Positions 1-40,608 of a stretch of DNA of 40,608 bases are shown here, piece after piece. The DNA is taken from positions 1 to 40,608 of IMG/VR virus record IMGVR_UViG_3300049016_000016; one strand, 5' to 3'. This DNA comes from a virus (Duplodnaviria; Caudoviricetes). Each line of letters opens with the position of its first letter. The first letter of the stretch is position 1. Under the pieces are notes generated by a model. It saw only the letters and a program-made list of their open reading frames with translations, was not told the origin of the DNA and ran no database searches. A program made the translations under genes and the position numbers.

Positions 1-127
1 AGCGACAGTGGAGCAGTGGATGTTCGATGCGGCGCGGGGCAAGCGCCCAATGCCGACGCCGGATGAATTGCGCGCCTGGGCCATCAAGCTGGGAACCCCG
101 GCTGATGGTGAGCCCGCCCCTGGCGTG
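1..127. repeat. Terminal overlap identical to 40482-40608 (circular contig)
   Basis: Exact 127-nt duplication of contig start and end; the ORF starting at 40000 reads through the junction. Confidence 0.95.
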
Positions 128-152
128 ACACCGACTCGCGGAGGGCAGAACC

Positions 153-287
153 GTGGAGCATGACGACATTCCCGTAGACGACGAGAACGACACCCGAGCC
201 TGCCCGGCATGCGACGGGACCGGCGTTGATGACGAAGACGGCGCGCCGTGCGGTAACTGCGGATGTCTTGGCTATGTCGAAGACTGA
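153..287 (+). CDS. Small Cys-rich protein (DnaJ-like CxxCxGxG zinc-finger motif), 44 aa
   Basis: Manual translation MEHDDIPVDDENDTRACPACDGTGVDDEDGAPCGNCGCLGYVED; GGAGGG RBS before GTG. Confidence 0.6.
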   Translation: MEHDDIPVDDENDTRACPACDGTGVDDEDGAPCGNCGCLGYVED

Positions 288-319
288 ATCGCTCGCCGCT
301 GGCGTGAAGGAGGTTCCTC

Positions 320-529
320 GTGGCTGAACAGAAGTTCATGGTGACGGACCCGCACAGCGCCACCCGTGGTGGTGAGATCGTCGCGCGCCACTTCAAGACC
401 GCCGCGAACGCACAGCGCTGGCTGGATAAGAAGAAGGTGGCCGACCCCGATGGCTACGACGGGTGCCTCGTTGAGCCGATGCCACTGCCCACTGCTGGCG
501 TGGATGTACCTCGTGAGGGACAGCAATGA
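320..529 (+). CDS. Hypothetical cassette protein, 69 aa
   Basis: AAGGAGG RBS, GTG start, ATGA overlap with next gene; ends ...TAGVDVPREGQQ. Confidence 0.75.
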   Translation: MAEQKFMVTDPHSATRGGEIVARHFKTAANAQRWLDKKKVADPDGYDGCLVEPMPLPTAGVDVPREGQQ

Positions 530-1275
530 GCCGCATCGTCTGCTGGTTCTCCTGCGGCGCCGCGTCGGCTGTCGCCACGAAGCTGGCCTTAGCGCAGTAC
601 GGCCCCGAAAACGTGGTGGTGGCTCGCTGCATCGTGCGCGAGGAACACCCCGACAACGACCGGTTCGCCGCCGACTGCGAAAAATGGTTCGGCGTGCCCA
701 TCGTGAACCTGATCAACGAGGAGTACGACGGCTCGATCTATGAGGTCATCGAGCGCCGGCAGTACATCAGCGGGACCAAGGGCGCGCCGTGCACGCTGCT
801 GCTCAAGAAGCAGGTGCGCGAAGCCTTCCAGCTGCCAACTGACCGCCATGTGTTCGGCTACACGGCCGAGGAACAGGATCGCTGGGACGACTTCCTCGAT
901 GCCAACAACATCGATGCGGTGGCGCCGCTGATCCTGAACGGAGTCACGCACGCCGACTGCCTGGGCATGGTGGAGCGCGCCGGCATCGAGTTGCCCGTCA
1001 TGTACCGCCTAGGCTTCCAGCACAACAACTGCATCGGATGCGTGAAGGCGGGTGGCCAGGGGTACTGGAACATGGTCCGCGACCACTTCCCGGTGCAGTT
1101 CACGCGCATGGCGGACCTGTCCCGGCGGCTCGGCGTGAAGTTGATCAACACGGGCGACAACGTGCGGATATCGCTGGACGAGCTGCAACCTGGCACCGGC
1201 GACTACCGAACGGAGCCGGAGGTGCAGTGCGGCATCTTCTGTGAGTTGGCCGAGAAGGAATACCGCGATGGCTGA
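526..1275 (+). CDS. PAPS-reductase / adenine nucleotide alpha-hydrolase-like protein
   Basis: N-terminal PP-loop-like WFSCGAASA; Cys motifs HNNCIGCVK and CGIFC; typical phage PAPS-reductase-like family. Confidence 0.75.
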   Translation: MSRIVCWFSCGAASAVATKLALAQYGPENVVVARCIVREEHPDNDRFAADCEKWFGVPIVNLINEEYDGSIYEVIERRQYISGTKGAPCTLLLKKQVREAFQLPTDRHVFGYTAEEQDRWDDFLDANNIDAVAPLILNGVTHADCLGMVERAGIELPVMYRLGFQHNNCIGCVKAGGQGYWNMVRDHFPVQFTRMADLSRRLGVKLINTGDNVRISLDELQPGTGDYRTEPEVQCGIFCELAEKEYRDG

Positions 1276-1384
1276 GAAACACAACGACCCCTTCATTCTG
1301 TGTCGCCACTGCATGCCGCGCCTGCTCGCGGGCTGGGCGGCTATGTGCGCCTTCGTGGTGCTCGTCTGGTGGTGGACCGCATGA
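1268..1384 (+). CDS. Small membrane peptide, 38 aa
   Basis: Manual translation MAEKHNDPFILCRHCMPRLLAGWAAMCAFVVLVWWWTA; overlaps upstream stop. Confidence 0.5.
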   Translation: MAEKHNDPFILCRHCMPRLLAGWAAMCAFVVLVWWWTA

Positions 1385-1423
1385 CGAAGCACAACAGCAC
1401 CCCTGGCGTGAAAGGGGAAGGCG

Positions 1424-1759
1424 ATGCTTGAAGTCTGGAAGGCAACCGCCGCCAATGGCGAAACCTGTCACTTCGGCGTCGAGGCGACTGCTCGCGCATG
1501 GGCGCGCAGCGGCACGGTGGAGCGCATCGAACTGCGCGATCCGCCGCAGCTCCACTCGGTTGCGACTAAACATGAAGGTCGCAACTGCACGGAAATGGCC
1601 CGACACGGTGCATTGCTGGCCGCGCTGGATGCGCTGGAAGACAACGACAACCACGCCGCGACGGTGATCCTGCGGACGCTCATTGCTGGCGTGTCAGTAC
1701 CTGATGGCGAGACGTTTTCGCAAAAGACGCCCATGGACTCCGGGGAGAAGAACGGATGA
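1424..1759 (+). CDS. Hypothetical cassette protein, 111 aa
   Basis: GGGGAAGG RBS; ATGA coupling to xis; contains motif (IAGVSVP). Confidence 0.7.
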   Translation: MLEVWKATAANGETCHFGVEATARAWARSGTVERIELRDPPQLHSVATKHEGRNCTEMARHGALLAALDALEDNDNHAATVILRTLIAGVSVPDGETFSQKTPMDSGEKNG

Positions 1760-2040
1760 GCGATCTGACCCGCCAGCAGCTATGCGCCAAGCTGGCAATC
1801 AGCGAGTCCACCGTCCGGCGCCTGGAGCTGGACGGGCTACCATTCACGCCCATCGGGGCGCGGGGCAAGCGCTATGACCTGGAAGAAGTAAAACGCTGGC
1901 TGAGAGGGCATCAGTGTCAATCTGGACCGACAAAGAAGGAACCATCCACGTCAGCCTTATGGTTGGCGGGGCGCGCATTCACCGACGCCTGCCGAAAGGT
2001 TCAAGTTCGCGGGATGCCAAACAGCTTGAAGCAGAGCTGA
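1756..2040 (+). CDS. xis: Excisionase-like HTH protein
   Basis: LTRQQLCAKLAISESTVRRL...RYDLEEVKRWL winged-HTH pattern, directly upstream of and overlapping the integrase. Confidence 0.75.
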   Translation: MSDLTRQQLCAKLAISESTVRRLELDGLPFTPIGARGKRYDLEEVKRWLRGHQCQSGPTKKEPSTSALWLAGRAFTDACRKVQVRGMPNSLKQS

Positions 2041-2876
2041 GGACGGCACTTGGACGAGGCCGTCAACCCGTCATCCCCGGCGATCCTCCCATGGCTGAAG
2101 TGATGGGCCTGTACCTCCAGCACGCCGAAAGCCTGCGAAGCCCAGAAACCGCCAGGTTCCACGCCCTGCGCCTTGGCCCTTGGGTGGACGGGAAGCGCGC
2201 CTCAGAAGCCCGCCAAGTCGCCGCAGCCGTCATCAAGGGTCTGCGCGGCCACTATGCCCCCGCCACCGTGAATCGAAGCCTCAGCGCCCTACAGAAGGGC
2301 CTGCATCTGGCCTGGGAGTCGGGGATGACCCCGGAGGACTTCAGTCAGCACGTGAAGCGGCTGCCGGAAAACAACCAGCGCGACATTCACTTAACGGTTG
2401 AACAGGTGAATTCGTTGGCATCCCACGCGAGCGAACAGGTGCGCGCCGCCATCTGGATCGCCCTCCTGACCGGCTGTCGTCGCGGGGAAATACTGGCCAT
2501 CAAGGCGGAAGACATTGGAGCCGACTCCATCACCATCCGGGCCGGGAACACCAAGACGCTCAAGACGCGGATTGTCCCGATCATCCCGGCGCTGCGCCCG
2601 TGGTTGGCGTACCTGCCGCTTCAAATGAATTTTGAAGGGCTGAAAACGGGGTTCAGGCGTGCGCGCGTGGCTGCGGAGATGCCATCAGTCCACTTCCACG
2701 ACTTGCGGCACTCTTGCGCCACGATTCTGCTTGCCAGTGGGGCCGACCTGTACACAGTGGCCAAGGTGCTAGGGCACTCCACCATCCGCATGACGGAACG
2801 CTACGCCCATCATCAGATTGACGCCCAGCGCGCAGCCCTACAAGGGGCCTTTGGAAAGGTGGGTGGTGGGTCGTAG
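1914..2876 (+). CDS. int: Tyrosine recombinase (phage integrase)
   Basis: Catalytic residues TGCRRGE, NTKT, HDLRH, LGHS, RYAH. Confidence 0.95.
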   Translation: MSIWTDKEGTIHVSLMVGGARIHRRLPKGSSSRDAKQLEAELRTALGRGRQPVIPGDPPMAEVMGLYLQHAESLRSPETARFHALRLGPWVDGKRASEARQVAAAVIKGLRGHYAPATVNRSLSALQKGLHLAWESGMTPEDFSQHVKRLPENNQRDIHLTVEQVNSLASHASEQVRAAIWIALLTGCRRGEILAIKAEDIGADSITIRAGNTKTLKTRIVPIIPALRPWLAYLPLQMNFEGLKTGFRRARVAAEMPSVHFHDLRHSCATILLASGADLYTVAKVLGHSTIRMTERYAHHQIDAQRAALQGAFGKVGGGS

Positions 2877-2938
2877 TGGGATCGAACCACTGACTTCCAC
2901 CGTGTGAAGGTGGCACTCTACCGCTGAGTTAACGACCC
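2864..2938 (-). tRNA. tRNA-Val(CAC), complete with CCA; probable attP core
   Basis: Reverse complement GGGTCGTTAACTCAGCGGTAGAGTGCCACCTTCACACGGTGGAAGTCAGTGGTTCGATCCCACTACGACCCACCA folds as a 75-nt cloverleaf with anticodon CAC. Confidence 0.93.
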
Positions 2939-3582: not shown

Positions 3583-3831
3583 ATGAGCGAGTGGCAACCG
3601 ATTGAGACTGCGCCCAAGGATGGTACTGACGTAATCGTCATGTACATGCACATCGAGACGCAGGTGGTTCACAACGCCTTCTGGATGGACGAGAAGGACT
3701 GCTGGGCCGGGGATAACCCTGGCGGTTGGTGGTCCTATGTTCATAGCGAAGTGAGCCGTGAACTGCTTGACGACTGGCGTACACCCACCCACTGGATGCC
3801 GCTTCCCCCTCCACCCAGGAGGCCCGCATGA
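3583..3831 (+). CDS. DUF551-like protein
   Basis: WQPIETAPKDG...PTHWMPLPPPP signature; AAGGAG RBS. Confidence 0.85.
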   Translation: MSEWQPIETAPKDGTDVIVMYMHIETQVVHNAFWMDEKDCWAGDNPGGWWSYVHSEVSRELLDDWRTPTHWMPLPPPPRRPA

Positions 3832-31365: not shown

Positions 31366-31713
31366 TTAGACAAGGCCGCGAGCCTCTTCCAGCTTCGCCA
31401 CGTACTCAGGCGAACGCCCCGCAATCAGCAGCTCCATGAGCCGCCTGGCGCGATCCGCGTCACCGCGAGCAGCAAAGCAGCCAGAGCGGGCGAACTCGGC
31501 CATGTGGCGCTCTACGGCCCTGGCGCAGCGGGAAATGGCTTCCTCGCGCGTTTCGTCATCGAGAGGTTTGTCACAGTCGCTCATGGGTGGAAGCTCCCCG
31601 TTTCCGACTCTTTCCTCCCGCTGAGCTACCGGAGAGGTGACGCAGGGGCTAAGCTGTGCGAACGTAGGGGAATTGCTTACCGGAAATTTGGAGGCTGAAA
31701 AAGGGGCGCTCAT
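31366..31713 (-). CDS. Hypothetical protein (start could be 31584)
   Basis: ORF coupled to the methylase stop; ends RSPEYVAKLEEARGL. Confidence 0.5.
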   Translation of the reverse strand: MSAPFSASKFPVSNSPTFAQLSPCVTSPVAQREERVGNGELPPMSDCDKPLDDETREEAISRCARAVERHMAEFARSGCFAARGDADRARRLMELLIAGRSPEYVAKLEEARGLV

Positions 31714-32798
31714 GCGGCCTCCGCTTGTGTGAACAGATCGCCAATCAGGGCGATCTCGGGAACGCAGTGCGGTGAGCACCACAGGGTTTCGCTTGCGCTG
31801 TTCTCCATGGCTTCCTCTGTGACGGCGTAGCCCTTGCGGGCGGTCCAGGTTCGGATGTGCCAGCCATGGGCCAGAAGCCCGTCATGCTCCCCGGCGTGGC
31901 CGCACAGGACGACGCGCAGCTTTGGGTCCGCCCCATTCGCCGCGCACCATGCCTGCACCTCGCGCGCGAGATCCCCGCCGACGCCACCGGCGCTGTAGTC
32001 CATCTCGCCCTTCGTGTAGGGCGGGTCCAGGAATATGGCGGTCAGGCCGTGGCGAGTCGTGACCGAATCCTTCACCACCCGGCTCCAGTCGCCGCAGGTA
32101 ACGCGCACGTCACGCATGCGGGCCTGCAGCGTGGAGAACCACTCGTGGATGTAGGCGGCGCGCGGAAGCGCGTTGACGCCCTGGCCGGCGCTTAGATGCG
32201 GGAGCTTGCGGTTGACGCCCCGGCCGGCGTCACCGAGATGCGGGAGCTTGCGGTTGACGCCCTGGCCGGCGTCACCGAGATGCGGGAGCTTGCGGTTGAC
32301 GCCCTGGCCGGCGTTGCCGAGATGCGGGAGCTGGCGCATGTCCACCAATCTCTCGCCGTCGTGCACCCACGGCCCGATTCCCGAGCACCAGCCCGACCCG
32401 ATCCAGTTGCACGCACCCCAGCACCACCATCCGGCAATCTTAGCGTCATACCACTCCGGGTCACCGTGCAAGCCGTCCAGCAGGACCGCCCGCTGCCGCA
32501 CCAGCCAGGAGTGCCGAGCGAACAGGTCGGCCTCGTTCGTCGGCCAGTCAGCATGCGCGGCTACCGCCTCGGCGTTATGGCTCACCGCGCGCCAAAAGTT
32601 GGCCACGAAGCCGTCCGCGTCGTTGATCGTCTCCACCCGTTTTCCGTCCGGTGCGCCGAGCAACATCGCGGCCGAGCCGGCGAAGGGCTCCACGTAATTG
32701 TCCACTCGCCCGAAGGCGGCCCACACGGTTTCGCAGGCGAGCGCCTTGCCGCCGAACCAGGGGAACGGGGCCGCGAGCGTTCCAGCGAGAGATTTCAT
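31710..32798 (-). CDS. DNA adenine methyltransferase (Dam/D12 class)
   Basis: PFPWFGGK, YVEPFAGS, IND and DPPY motifs. Confidence 0.88.
   Translation of the reverse strand: MKSLAGTLAAPFPWFGGKALACETVWAAFGRVDNYVEPFAGSAAMLLGAPDGKRVETINDADGFVANFWRAVSHNAEAVAAHADWPTNEADLFARHSWLVRQRAVLLDGLHGDPEWYDAKIAGWWCWGACNWIGSGWCSGIGPWVHDGERLVDMRQLPHLGNAGQGVNRKLPHLGDAGQGVNRKLPHLGDAGRGVNRKLPHLSAGQGVNALPRAAYIHEWFSTLQARMRDVRVTCGDWSRVVKDSVTTRHGLTAIFLDPPYTKGEMDYSAGGVGGDLAREVQAWCAANGADPKLRVVLCGHAGEHDGLLAHGWHIRTWTARKGYAVTEEAMENSASETLWCSPHCVPEIALIGDLFTQAEAA
32172..32332 (-). repeat. Coding tandem repeat, about 4 units of 42 bp (LPHLGDAGQGVNRK)
   Basis: GTTGACGCC recurs at 32172, 32211, 32253 and 32295 (periods 39, 42, 42). 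Confidence 0.95.
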
Positions 32799-33178
32799 AC
32801 CGTCTCCGCCTTGAGGGAGGCCAGCATCTGCAGCAGCTCGGGGACGGTGCCTTCCAGCTTCGCCAGCAAGCGGGCCTTTCGGGCTTCGGGCGTGTCCATG
32901 AACTTCGCGGCCAGGTACTCGATCACGGCAGCAGCCTCGCCAGTGCTCTTGATCCAGTCTTCCAAGTCGTCGCAATTCATGCGCTGGGTGTCACCCTCAG
33001 CCGGGTTCAGCTTGCGCGTGAGCGTGCTGGGTGCCATGTCCATGTCTGCCGCTTGGGTCTTCAGCGACTTGTGCGTCAGGCTTGCGCGGTGCGCGATATA
33101 GGAGCGCAGAGTGGGGAAGCGATCAGGGAGCGCTGGCTCAAAAGAGAGAGTCATCTGGGCCGGAGAAAGTGATGGCAT
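32795..33178 (-). CDS. CII-like regulatory protein
   Basis: AADMDMAPSTLTRKLNP HTH; position after cro. Confidence 0.6.
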   Translation of the reverse strand: MPSLSPAQMTLSFEPALPDRFPTLRSYIAHRASLTHKSLKTQAADMDMAPSTLTRKLNPAEGDTQRMNCDDLEDWIKSTGEAAAVIEYLAAKFMDTPEARKARLLAKLEGTVPELLQMLASLKAETV

Positions 33179-36871: not shown

Positions 36872-37912
36872 GTGAGCAGCAACCTTCAGATCATCCGAGA
36901 AGACATCTACTCGACGCGCGAGCGGTTCGACAAGATGTCAGGGGGCGCCCTGAACTTTGAGCGTGAGGCTGGGTTTGCGGTCCAGATCGTCACAGCGAAC
37001 GACTACGCAATGCGCGTGGCGATGGACAACCGCCAGTCGGTTATCAACGCCGTCACGAACGTTGCGGCCATCGGGATCAGCCTGAACCCTGCTAAGCGTC
37101 AGGCGTATCTCGTCCCGCGCGATGGGCGAATCTGCCTGGACATCAGCTACATGGGCCTACTGGATCTCGCCATCCAATCCGGCTCCATCATGTGGGGACA
37201 GTCGGAGCTGGTCTACGAGAACGACCGCTTTGAACTGCAAGGCTTCGACAAGCCGCCCCTGCACAACCGCAATCCATTCTCCAAGGATCGCGGGGCGATC
37301 GTCGGTGTTTATGTCGTGGTCAAGACCCGCGACGGCGACTATCTGACAGCCTGCATGAGCATTGACGAGGTGTACGACATCCGCAACCGCTCCAGCGCTT
37401 GGAAGGCGTGGGAAAGCAAGCAGAAAAAGTGCCCCTGGGTGACGGACGAGGGCGAGATGATCAAGAAGACGGTCATCAAGCGCGCCTACAAGCTGTGGCC
37501 CAAGACTGACCGCCTGGACAACGCGGTTCACTTCCTCAACACCGAGGGCGGCGAAGGACTGGCCGACATCGCTACCGAGCAGCCAGCCTCGTTCCGCAGC
37601 TCTGCGACCATGGGTGCGATGGCCGCACTTGACGTTGACCAACAGAACTACCTGCGGGACTTGGCGGCGGAGGTCACCGAGCTTTTCAACAGCCCAGAGG
37701 CTGGAGTCTCGCTCTCGTTCGACCGGCTGGAAAGCGAAAATCTGGACTCGGATCAGAAGGTTGGGCTGTGGTCATGCCTCGCATCAAACGTCCGCTCCGG
37801 CCTCAAGAAGGAGGGCGAAGCGAGAAGGACGAAGCCTGCGGCCAACCAGGAACTGAAGCAAGCCCATACCACTGTCACGCAGGCCGCGCAGCACCAGCAG
37901 AGGGCGGCTTGA
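36872..37912 (+). CDS. recT: RecT/Red-beta-family single-strand annealing recombinase
   Basis: GISLNPAKRQAYLVP, ISYMGL, PWVTDEGEMIKKTVIKRAYKLWP motifs. Confidence 0.9.
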   Translation: MSSNLQIIREDIYSTRERFDKMSGGALNFEREAGFAVQIVTANDYAMRVAMDNRQSVINAVTNVAAIGISLNPAKRQAYLVPRDGRICLDISYMGLLDLAIQSGSIMWGQSELVYENDRFELQGFDKPPLHNRNPFSKDRGAIVGVYVVVKTRDGDYLTACMSIDEVYDIRNRSSAWKAWESKQKKCPWVTDEGEMIKKTVIKRAYKLWPKTDRLDNAVHFLNTEGGEGLADIATEQPASFRSSATMGAMAALDVDQQNYLRDLAAEVTELFNSPEAGVSLSFDRLESENLDSDQKVGLWSCLASNVRSGLKKEGEARRTKPAANQELKQAHTTVTQAAQHQQRAA

Positions 37913-38598
37913 TGCCCGGCTACGAAATCTCTTTCTCCATCACGGCGGTCTGCCCGTGCTGCGGCAAGGACTTACCGTCCAGTTCGTACCTGACCGTGAG
38001 CAAGCCTTCCGGTTACCCCTTGGACCGCGACAACCCTTACGAGCGGAAGGACCGTCGCGTGTTCATCACGCCGTGCGCGGATTGCTTCGAGCCGAAGCGG
38101 AAGCCTGACGCCACCGCTGGCGTGGAGGGCACCCCTGCGTCTCTGAGTGACGAGCGCATCCTGCACCTGTGGGACACGCACGTCGCCTACGAGACGAACC
38201 CCAACCGGCCGAGGCAGCCGCCGCTGAGCGACAAGGACAAGCTGGCGTTCGCTCGCGCGGTGCTCTCCGCTCATGACGCGCCGGAGGCAATGGGGGCGCT
38301 GCAAGAGGCCGCGAACCTCGCCCGCGTGATCGGCGGCATGTTGGCTGAGGCAAACGTGCCCACGGACGTAAAAGGCAAGGTGCATGAGCTACGCCGCATG
38401 CTCTTTGATGCCGCCCTTGGCGTGAAAGCGTATGACGAAGCTCGGCTGGCCGAGTGGCTAAAGGCGGCGGGCTACATGCCGGAGCCGGAAGGCTTCCTGT
38501 GGGTGTTCAGCACGTCCGACTTGGTGGACATCGTCAACAACATCGCACCCGTTTCTGGCGTGAAAACACCTAATGGAGGCCAAGATGCCGAAGGTTGA
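37912..38598 (+). CDS. Modular fusion protein (three modules separated by the xGV motif)
   Basis: TGATG coupling to recT; motifs at 38117, 38417 (variant) and 38555. Confidence 0.7.
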   Translation: MPGYEISFSITAVCPCCGKDLPSSSYLTVSKPSGYPLDRDNPYERKDRRVFITPCADCFEPKRKPDATAGVEGTPASLSDERILHLWDTHVAYETNPNRPRQPPLSDKDKLAFARAVLSAHDAPEAMGALQEAANLARVIGGMLAEANVPTDVKGKVHELRRMLFDAALGVKAYDEARLAEWLKAAGYMPEPEGFLWVFSTSDLVDIVNNIAPVSGVKTPNGGQDAEG

Positions 38599-38944
38599 AA
38601 TGAAGCCGCTGACGCCGGAAGCGCAGGCGCTGGCCCTGCGCGTTCACGAACTGCTCAAGGACGCCAAGCCGGGCCAGAAGGTGGCGCTTCCGGCCGATCT
38701 GGCGCAGGCCATCAACGATTCCGTCCGCGAGGCGTCTGCGCCCGCCATCCTCGCGCGCCGCCGATTGGAATGGCTGCACAGCCGCGATGCCTATGTGGAC
38801 GGCTACGAGTGGGGAATCTTCCGCGTCAAGTGGGAGAACGGCCGAGTGGTGGAGGTATTGCAGACCAACAGCGACTTCTCCGATCTGGACGCCGCGATGG
38901 GCACCGCTGGCGTGCGAGTACCTGGGGAGGGGAAACAGAAATGA
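38585..38944 (+). CDS. Hypothetical cassette protein
   Basis: GGAGG RBS; ends TAGVRVPGEGKQK. Confidence 0.7.
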   Translation: MPKVEMKPLTPEAQALALRVHELLKDAKPGQKVALPADLAQAINDSVREASAPAILARRRLEWLHSRDAYVDGYEWGIFRVKWENGRVVEVLQTNSDFSDLDAAMGTAGVRVPGEGKQK

Positions 38945-39096
38945 GCGATCCCGAAGACCCGAACCGCTACGGCGAACCCACCAAAGCGCCGCACTGGTGC
39001 GAACTGTGCCGGGGGCACACGGGGCCGAATTCGCCCTGCCACAGTGGCGACGACTACCAAGCCGACGATGACGGCCCGACGACGGAGGTCGAATGA
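38941..39096 (+). CDS. Small Cys/His protein, 51 aa
   Basis: GGAGG RBS, ATGA overlap; HWCELC...PCH. Confidence 0.55.
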   Translation: MSDPEDPNRYGEPTKAPHWCELCRGHTGPNSPCHSGDDYQADDDGPTTEVE

Positions 39097-39272
39097 CGAA
39101 CCTTGAAAAGCTGGACGAGGTGATCCGCCTAACGGTCATGGCGGCACGCAGCGCCGAACCAACCACCATCGACTATGCCGAACTGGTCGAGCGCCGGAAC
39201 CGGCTCGTCCACGAACTGCGAGCGGCCCTTGCTGGCGTGGCACCGGCTCATGGAGGAAATGATGGACGTTGA
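39093..39272 (+). CDS. Hypothetical cassette protein, 59 aa
   Basis: Manual translation MTNLEKLDEV...LAGVAPAHGGNDGR; GGAGG RBS. Confidence 0.65.
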   Translation: MTNLEKLDEVIRLTVMAARSAEPTTIDYAELVERRNRLVHELRAALAGVAPAHGGNDGR

Positions 39273-39483
39273 ACTTTGCCCAGAATGCGGCGCGCCCGAC
39301 AACTACGTTGACCAGCTCGCCAAAGTGCGCGCTGTCGCTTCCGTGGCCCTTCAAACGCTGCGCCATCTGGAAGCTGCTCGCGGGATCTCGCCGGAGTCTC
39401 GCGAGCGCATCAGCGACACCATCGCCGCGTTGCGTGCCGAATTGCTCGGCACTGCTGGCGTGCAGGAGGATCAACGTGGCTGA
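39259..39483 (+). CDS. Hypothetical cassette protein (CPECG motif)
   Basis: GGAGG RBS; ends TAGVQEDQRG. Confidence 0.65.
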   Translation: MMDVELCPECGAPDNYVDQLAKVRAVASVALQTLRHLEAARGISPESRERISDTIAALRAELLGTAGVQEDQRG

Positions 39484-40003
39484 GTGGCAACCCATCAAAA
39501 CAGCACCGAAGGACGGCACCTGGATCGCCGCCATCGGCCACCTGAGCCACGGCACGCCCGACACGTTGAAATGGAAAGACGGTGGCTGGTGGAACGGTTA
39601 TGACAACCACGACCATGAGCCGACGCACTGGTATCCGCTGCCGGCCGCCGCTGGCGTGGAGGGGACTTTGGAGCCCGAGCCCGGCTGGTTCCTGCCTTAC
39701 GAGGCGGTCAAGCACCTTACCAGTTTGCCGAAGCTGCTGGAGCACGCAAGGCGCGCCCGATGGACCAATGCCGTGGTCAGGAAAGACGGCGTGGAAACGA
39801 CCTACGAGGCCGACTGGATCAAGCACATGCGCTGGGTTTCTGGAGGTGCGGCATACGAAGGCCGCGCATTCGTTGCCGGCGCATGGCAAGCGTGGCACCC
39901 GATCAGCGCCGAGGTTTACGAGAACCGGAAGAAGTGGCCGCGCGACGGCTATGAGGTTCGTGTCGCCGCTGGCGTGGATGTACCTGGGGAGGGGAAGCGA
40001 TGA
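39476..40003 (+). CDS. DUF551-like domain fused to further module(s)
   Basis: AGGAGG RBS, GTG start; WQPIKTAPKDG...PTHWYPLP, then an AGVEGT junction. Confidence 0.75.
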   Translation: MAEWQPIKTAPKDGTWIAAIGHLSHGTPDTLKWKDGGWWNGYDNHDHEPTHWYPLPAAAGVEGTLEPEPGWFLPYEAVKHLTSLPKLLEHARRARWTNAVVRKDGVETTYEADWIKHMRWVSGGAAYEGRAFVAGAWQAWHPISAEVYENRKKWPRDGYEVRVAAGVDVPGEGKR

Positions 40004-40608
40004 ACGAACTGACGCCCGAAGTGAACGAGGCCCTGCGACAGCTCCATGAGCACAGTAAGGCGGTGATGGAGGCGCTGGCCGACCTCGCGCGCCAGGGCTG
40101 CTACGAGTTCAAGCAACACCCCGGCGGCGAATACATCGACCGGGACGAGGCCATGCGAAACGTGATCCGGTTGCGTGACGCCCACACCCGCATGAGTCAC
40201 CACGCACGCGCGGCGCTGGTCGCGGCCGGGCGCATTGCTGGCGTGGCAGCGGTTGCGCCGTCCGACGAAGCCGAGTTCTGCATCGAGGGTGCGGGCGGGA
40301 TGTTCCTTGCGTCCTCGCAAGGTCCCCGAGCGGAAGCGTGGCGCGAGATTCAGCACTACGCCGCCCAGTACCACGACGAGGGGCCGCTGACCATCTACGA
40401 GGTCACGCGCCGCCCGGTAACCGCTGCTGGCGTGGCACCGGCTGGTGAACCTTCTTGGTGGGCTGCATCCCTCAATCGCCGAGCGACAGTGGAGCAGTGG
40501 ATGTTCGATGCGGCGCGGGGCAAGCGCCCAATGCCGACGCCGGATGAATTGCGCGCCTGGGCCATCAAGCTGGGAACCCCGGCTGATGGTGAGCCCGCCC
40601 CTGGCGTG
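40000..40608 (+). CDS. Modular fusion protein wrapping the origin (stop at 161-163)
   Basis: Manual translation is open from ATG 40000 through IAGV (40238), AAGV (40427) and APGV (40601/120) to TGA at 163. Confidence 0.7.
   Translation, partial: MNELTPEVNEALRQLHEHSKAVMEALADLARQGCYEFKQHPGGEYIDRDEAMRNVIRLRDAHTRMSHHARAALVAAGRIAGVAAVAPSDEAEFCIEGAGGMFLASSQGPRAEAWREIQHYAAQYHDEGPLTIYEVTRRPVTAAGVAPAGEPSWWAASLNRRATVEQWMFDAARGKRPMPTPDELRAWAIKLGTPADGEPAPGV

Follow-up and report, generated by a model that had tools for sequence, protein, structure and literature searches.

The window analysed here, the whole 40,608 nucleotides of the IMG/VR record IMGVR_UViG_3300049016_000016, is a complete circular phage record (Caudoviricetes) with a terminal repeat of 127 nt and a circle of 40,481 nt. 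The phage is temperate and carries lambdoid-type immunity and replication genes together with P22-like head genes. We guess from weak sequence matches that it may infect a betaproteobacterium. Between its recT and xis genes, a position matching the exo-xis region of lambda, lies a 4.33-kb array of small accessory genes, punctuated by a 7-base core, TGGCGTG. The array is a chain of units, and relatives are distinguished by units whose start or end is at this core. The sequencing runs that contain the array are soil metagenomes; all eight were compared as contigs, which show presence only. The array and its borders are as follows.

36872-37912 (+): recT-like single-strand annealing gene, left array border (phrog_148, E 1e-63; PF03837, E 2e-28)
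37912-40608 (+): accessory-gene array, first part, running on over the assembly overlap to 1759
1-1759 (+): accessory-gene array, second part, in which 1-127 repeat 40482-40608
1756-2876 (+): xis-like gene and tyrosine integrase, right array border

The core occurs 15 times in the array, always on the + strand, against an expectation of 0.36 copies derived from the circle outside it (P ~1e-19), and YTGGCGTG has no copy on the + strand of the remaining 36 kb. Every one of the 15 reads NNT GGC GTG, i.e., x-Gly-Val (xGV), in the frame of the incoming open reading frame (ORF). Ten cores are followed by a tail of 9-24 codons, whose stop overlaps the next start, and two of these lie in mini-ORFs of 16-17 codons. 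At the other five (38118, 38418, 39652, 40239, and 40428) the frame is read through, as the preliminary description had proposed for copies of the motif that lack a following stop and ribosome-binding site. Three fusion ORFs result from this, listed below with their modules and with all the cores of the array.

37912-38598 (+): fusion ORF of 228 aa: Cys module, AGV, module(s), LGV, module, SGV, tail; xGV at residues 69, 169, and 215
37912-38115 (+): Cys module, a stand-alone protein of 68-83 aa in 12 of 13 cluster members
38118-38124 (+): core, read through (AGV), at whose last base an 86% DNA match to L051 stops
38125-38415 (+): open unit, with the DERILHLWD module (whose 10 homologues each have different partners) and a second piece
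38418-38424 (+): core, read through (LGV)
38556-38562 (+): core, gene-terminal (SGV), 14 codons before the stop
38908-38914 (+): core, gene-terminal, in ORF 38585-38944
39233-39239 (+): core, gene-terminal, in ORF 39093-39272
39456-39462 (+): core, gene-terminal, in ORF 39262-39483; foreign DNA ahead of its first base in run X7
39476-40003 (+): fusion ORF of 175 aa with a GTG start: DUF551-like module, AGV (59), open unit, AGV (165), tail
39476-39649 (+): DUF551-like module, below the Pfam cut-off; its match extends to position 66 of the 68 in the model
39652-39658 (+): core, read through; from this point on P0001 is identical, behind a different N-terminus, and a contig break of run X3 begins here
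39970-39976 (+): core, gene-terminal; in runs X4, X7, and X8 the upstream DNA is foreign up to a junction 6-7 nt ahead of it
40000-40608, ending at 163 (+): fusion ORF of 214 aa: M1, AGV, M2, AGV, M3, PGV, tail; xGV at residues 80, 143, and 201
40000-40236 (+): module M1
40239-40245 (+): core, read through
40246-40425 (+): module M2, a predicted alpha/beta mini-domain
40428-40434 (+): core, read through; from this point on P0030 and P0179 are identical, behind a different N-terminus
40435-40599 (+): module M3, a predicted helical hairpin
40602-40608, the same as 121-127 (+): core, gene-terminal (PGV); the DNA branches directly after it in run X1
300-306 (+): core in the 17-codon mini-ORF 274-327
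496-502 (+): core, gene-terminal, in ORF 320-529; P0027 is identical up to this core and then has a different tail
1404-1410 (+): core in the 16-codon mini-ORF 1381-1431
1687-1693 (+): last core, with a 24-codon tail that overlaps the xis start
3583-3831 (+): stand-alone DUF551-like gene outside the array, without a core

The layout originally read for ORF 37912, a Cys module and further modules separated by AGV and LGV and closed by SGV, is the one we find. For ORF 39476, a complete DUF551-like domain had been placed just before AGV. A DUF551-like module does stand there, yet its Pfam score remains below the cut-off. Similarly, ORF 40000 does hold three modules, although the last of the three motifs that were said to join them (APGV) is terminal, before an 11-residue tail, and this leaves two internal joints. 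That ORF crosses the assembly overlap; P0029, from the protein collection, has 214 aa and is identical to it over the 203 residues searched. An assembly artefact as the source of the fusions is ruled out, because a single contig of run X2, which comes from a different study, covers 39424-40455 with zero differences. We also observed that the terminal repeat (40482-40608) ends at the final base of a core, at the same point as a branch in run X1. The assembler likely broke the circle at this mixed junction.

From core to core, two types of units can be distinguished. A “start” unit consists of a short tail with a stop, a ribosome site, an overlapping start, and a gene body that is open at its 3′ end. 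An “open” unit is a whole number of codons without a stop. Open units make up 15 of the 44 units in five arrays (the window and four described below); the other 29 all shift the frame, because overlapping starts need it. Since all bodies enter the core in one frame, whatever unit follows will close the protein with a tail of 8-27 residues or lengthen it by a domain. The x codon stays with the unit before the core, whereas the codon following Val belongs to the unit behind it; this puts the crossover within TGGCGTG. Furthermore, the constraint acts on DNA, because the silent positions are fixed in 15/15 array copies, whereas the heptamer encodes only 9 of the 169 xGV tripeptides in the ordinary genes of these phages. 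A motif kept at the protein level is therefore rejected.

It is very unlikely that the motif is kept for expression, as an RNA or DNA binding site coupling the next gene or as a protein cleavage signal, with the swaps as a by-product. The ten copies at 9-24 codons from a stop, just before the next ribosome site, and the two mini-ORFs would suit such a role. However, five copies lie within reading frames with no start after them, and there is no hairpin signal. A signal for protease cleavage gives no reason for silent bases to be fixed, and x is unconstrained among the residues with T-ending codons (E, Q, K, M, and W make up 2 of 68 terminal x, against a background of 21%).

Two of the open units, 38125-38415 and 39659-39967, hold two sub-modules each with no exact core between them. 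At 38274-38280, where homologues show xGV, there is a core-like TGACGCG with good arms, possibly a decayed site.

The modules behave as independent pieces. A phmmer search with ORF 40000 found 261 proteins, and we classed the 149 listed besides itself module by module: four match M1, 52 match M2, and 93 match M3, and none covers two modules. A looser classing by BLAST had given 11 of the 149 over two modules, none of which the search per module confirmed. The homologues that would align across the joints as one domain, the finding that would have spoken against independent modules, are thus absent among the matches listed. M2 and M3 are each predicted to fold alone (predicted local distance difference test, pLDDT, of 93 and 91), and Foldseek found no match for either in the PDB at E<=0.001. 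The pieces also occur alone or with different partners, a point that the preliminary description had set for checking: the Cys module is mostly a protein by itself, and each of the ten homologues of the module that follows it has other neighbours.

The gene at 3583-3831 had been cited as DUF551 standing alone. It is indeed a separate gene, 41% identical to the piece at 39476-39649 over 51 columns, and DUF551 (PF04448) is the best Pfam match of both. However, the scores of 15.1 bits for the separate gene and 17.6 bits for the array piece lie below the gathering cut-off of 22; the N-terminal module of P0030 exceeds it with 24.2 bits. Residues 66-150 of ORF 39476 are matched by three Ralstonia phage records. 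GenBank phages gave no match to the array DNA or to ORF 40000, plasmids gave none to ORF 37912, and a longer relative of ORF 39262 was searched for and not found. Among 185 collected homologues, 67 carry a C-terminal xGV compared to 16 in shuffles, and 14 of the 67 are an LGVP inside M3.

Relatives switch partners at the core. From Gly-Val onward, P0001 has the sequence of ORF 39476, preceded by a different start of seven residues; in P0002, the DUF551-like module and the tail enclose a different middle unit, whose left joint is four residues off. Both P0030 and P0179 equal ORF 40000 from the second joint, and within that stretch differ from each other only past PGV. P0027 follows ORF 320-529 up to AGV and then has a different tail, and P0003, P0010, and P0012 have a common body and diverge after SGV. 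The same is visible in DNA. In run X1, possibly the source sample, the DNA forks exactly past base 40608, one branch (depth 36) continuing as in the window and the other (depth 11) being of the P0179 type; in run X7 a contig reads 34 foreign letters directly before 39456; and contigs of run X3 break with an overlap that begins at 39652. The DNA of the Cys module is matched by L051 (86%) until the final G of the core, and between G003 and L051 identity begins on its first T. At several such junctions on the edges of the core, the sequence beyond is unrelated and only the seven bases are common. The joints 40003>40421, 40608>39968, and 39191>40212 were not counted, being repeat effects or having short sides. 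We consider it very likely that units are exchanged at this joint, and the assembly resembling exon shuffling in a fixed frame, which had been suggested from the window alone, is supported by the partner switches in P0001, P0002, P0027, P0030, P0179, and L051 and by the DNA core itself.

Arrays with the same site in the same frame are present in other phages: G001 (64 kb, 15 sites), G002 (9 sites), G003 (6 sites), and G410 (74 kb, 6 sites). One ORF of G410 has three read-through joints ahead of a terminal joint, and G004 and G005 have 1-3 core copies at gene ends. G001 and G410 are complete phages, and the window, G001, and G410 have no common protein at E 1e-4/1e-5; the DNA polymerase of G001 is closest to KPP25-like and Rhizobium phages. 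Nevertheless, heads and tails of 17-50 nt are common within and between arrays, and in P0184 a G410-like module is joined to a window-like module at LGV. Pattern scans gave two arrays among 105 loci (L076 and L133), the G410 contig and once more that of G001 among 119 loci, and among six loci G001, G002, G410, one single site, and two chance matches. A scan with 33 loci gave no array, and those with at least 122 and at least 118 loci gave repeats and chance matches. A two-site pattern was present in 30 of 401 Comamonadaceae-family genomes, in none of them array-like.

These shared ends and the neighbouring genes bear on a further explanation, short-homology annealing of the RecT/Red-beta type. 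The core would then be the most conserved part of linkers of 15-50 nt made of heads and tails; modules with the standard joint would spread by fitting more arrays, and selection on the tails and coupled starts would keep the frame. We regard annealing as a real possibility. The window and G003-G005 each have a recT gene at the border of the array, a YqaJ exonuclease lies near the array in G002, and G001 has a weak gp2.5-like annealing protein nearby. The common heads and tails come close to the minimal pairing length of Red-beta, 23-27 bp (PMC3945230). In addition, G003 and L051 retain other ordered linkers without core or arms, and annealing accounts for the absence of a common recombinase. 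What it does not predict are the dyad arms described below and a letter-perfect 7-mer across phages without a common gene, and several junctions share the seven bases alone.

The linkers just mentioned lie at L008 10997-16000 (G003) and L051 3170-6850, where eleven near-identical in-frame linkers of 27-53 nt follow in the same order, with unrelated modules between them. They form another set of linkers, used in a comparable region. When the arms of the core were sought around other 7-base centres in these linkers, 2 of 11 reached p<0.05, which does not support their presence. At L012 6344-8618, mosaic accessory proteins are linked by yet other recurring peptide linkers and have no core.

The surroundings of the core were analysed by comparing 45 array sites with 177 in-frame control occurrences. 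The left arm is the stronger one (R at -9 in 36 sites, Y at -6 in 44, R at -5 in 40, Y at -4 in 44, and Y at -3 in 44, with R a purine and Y a pyrimidine). On the right, R is found at +3 in 37 sites and at +6 in 38, Y at +9 in 36, and T never at +2. Enrichment of single bases over the controls includes C at -6 and G at +4. The right arm might mirror ribosome sites, yet it persists in the 22 sites with a stop at least 13 codons off and thus with no ribosome site close by (+3R 19, +5Y 18, +6R 17, +9Y 18). The consensus, RNNYRYYNN-TGGCGTG-NNRRYRNNY, is a degenerate dyad about an asymmetric spacer. Sites of tyrosine recombinases consist of inverted arms around an asymmetric spacer, and an invariant asymmetric core of 7 bp with junctions on its edges agrees with the identical spacer of 6-8 bp of a simple site of this kind. 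Neither strand, in linear or circularised junctions, showed an excess of pairing or folding. An attC-like fold was rejected, as there is no hairpin signal and no GTTRRRY core.

The uneven arms might also come from a sequence-specific host or phage nuclease that nicks or cuts the site, with the ends annealing at another copy of the core; junctions would then lie on the core without any true recombinase. Such a nuclease seems improbable, although HNH and other nuclease genes lie near the arrays of G001 and G002. TGGCGTG is mildly depleted in three Comamonadaceae chromosome samples (87 observed vs 134 expected, 55 vs 83, and 85 vs 108), and an outgroup mix of high GC shows no depletion (109 vs 108). 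However, none of these nucleases is common to the phages, and the depletion may reflect codon context, as AGGCGTG is also low, in a family that may not be that of the host. In the same samples (G144, G240, and G055) TGGCGTG is among the most under-represented 7-mers. A role as a classical Chi site is not supported: in Comamonadaceae samples, which may not be of the host's group, the heptamer is neither in excess nor skewed between the strands (42 vs 45).

Several known systems resemble the array. In the shufflon (Rci/sfx) of IncI plasmids, with its 7-bp crossover core, a conserved core likewise lies inside a reading frame and the C-terminal part of a protein is swapped (PMC9045228). The sfx sites, as that source portrays them, are inverted, have one conserved 12-bp arm, adjoin rci, and serve one gene. 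In contrast, the array sites are direct repeats, all 15 on one strand, flanked left and right by degenerate arms. They join many unrelated modules and enclose no invertible segments; their neighbour is xis/int, and no dedicated enzyme adjoins them. PeSL cassettes of T4-type phages also punctuate an accessory region with a repeated element that marks modular exchange, yet a PeSL is described as an intergenic promoter with a stem-loop (PMC2839356), while the array site is 7 bp long, coding, in frame, without hairpin signal, and forms protein fusions. Integron cassettes and attC clusters in phages share the promoterless single-gene units, the direct orientation, and possibly an enzyme in trans (PMC9892861); the array differs by lacking the GTTRRRY core and the folded hairpin, and by units that fuse in frame. 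Without all the defining properties of any one of them, the array site stands outside shufflons, attC arrays, PeSLs, and Chi.

Other likenesses are looser. The boundary or linker sequences of lambdoid phages are short conserved repeats proposed as recombination points (PMC3029335), and the array too has a short conserved sequence at its mosaic junctions. The 15-bp “recer” repeats of albumin-binding genes join domains in frame (PMC3467074). Unlike both, one and the same core is here gene end and domain joint, with 6-15 copies per array, dyad flanks, and an occurrence in phages without a common protein. The Ea22/DUF551 mosaics of the lambda exo-xis region share the position between annealing gene and xis, a portable DUF551-like domain, and small mosaic proteins; the portion of that account available to us names no fixed DNA joint, and the array modules are other families (PMC10834534). 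Shuffling of phage protein fragments is already documented, in a paper whose accessible text yielded no passage on breakpoints (PMC10684548). The literature searched, with few subscription papers and no supplements, held no account of the site.

We favour, with a probability of roughly 0.45, an exchange by a tyrosine-type site-specific recombinase that would be supplied from outside the phage. The core would be the overlap (spacer) region, the degenerate inverted arms the putative binding sites, and the enzyme would act in trans, coming from the host or from a co-resident element. Such exchange would furnish new early proteins with several domains, whose target is probably the host. Such an enzyme is favoured because an identity of seven bases is far under what Red-beta needs, and the constancy of the site in phages without a common gene argues for a factor in trans.

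A number of observations weigh against this recombinase. The symmetry of the arms exists at the purine/pyrimidine level alone, with eight significant positions, and the correlation between the arms is a modest 0.45 (control subsets: standard deviation 0.18, maximum 0.61), with 0.39 at a shift of one base. Several joints are displaced to 6-7 nt ahead of the core or 18-28 nt behind it, where shared heads and tails end, and in one variant the switch is at the recT stop, where there is no core. Contigs of the eight runs contained no excised circle and no skip from core to core. Only three of ten recT relatives have gene-end cores and seven have none; only one of the 11 linkers of G003 and L051 has the core; xGV is present in only 2 of 12 stand-alone Cys modules; and most module homologues sit beside other linkers, as the count of 67 in 185 reflects. 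The tRNA-Val/att region of the window has no such site. Finally, neither PF00589 nor a profile from five integrases of these phages found a recombinase in G001 or G410, an imperfect test, as the PF00589 genome search also missed the integrase of G413. That gene is the divergent integrase-like one at L051 7089-8186. The window phage's own integrase was rejected as the shuffler, given the lack of a site at tRNA-Val and the existence of arrays without an integrase.

By analogy with Ea22, and from their position, the fusion proteins are likely early proteins that interact with the host. More doubtful is a wider scenario, in which temperate and lytic phages of one host group, with no common genes, would share one site at which a host or helper recombinase inserts, deletes, and fuses domains in frame. 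If one such recombinase serves all these phages, it would be a natural exon-shuffling machine for phage accessory proteins.

It has long been asked whether phage mosaicism arises by joining at random or at built-in joints. Shuffling at the protein level usually comes without a known rule for the breakpoints. Here, the breakpoint is a defined 7-base site in a fixed frame and in unrelated phages, and therefore the question becomes directly testable. If an enzyme acting in trans is found, it would provide a new recombination tool with a programmable spacer, and a phage route to multi-domain proteins for host interaction. The modules are also a source of many small uncharacterised folds, two of them without a match among solved structures.

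Some minor observations concern the array and its surroundings. At 37870-37912, runs X1 and X7 hold a co-existing variant with a different first gene from the recT stop on, as well as variants of the recT 3′ end. A PAPS-reductase-like gene (phrog_424, 526-1275) lies within one core-to-core unit, together with a small gene and a mini-ORF. A whole tRNA-Val(CAC) at 2864-2938 (-), the sole Rfam match, overlaps the integrase stop and is probably part of attP. Outside the array, the DNA methyltransferase gene at 31710-32975 holds three in-frame tandem units of 42 nt at 32194-32336.

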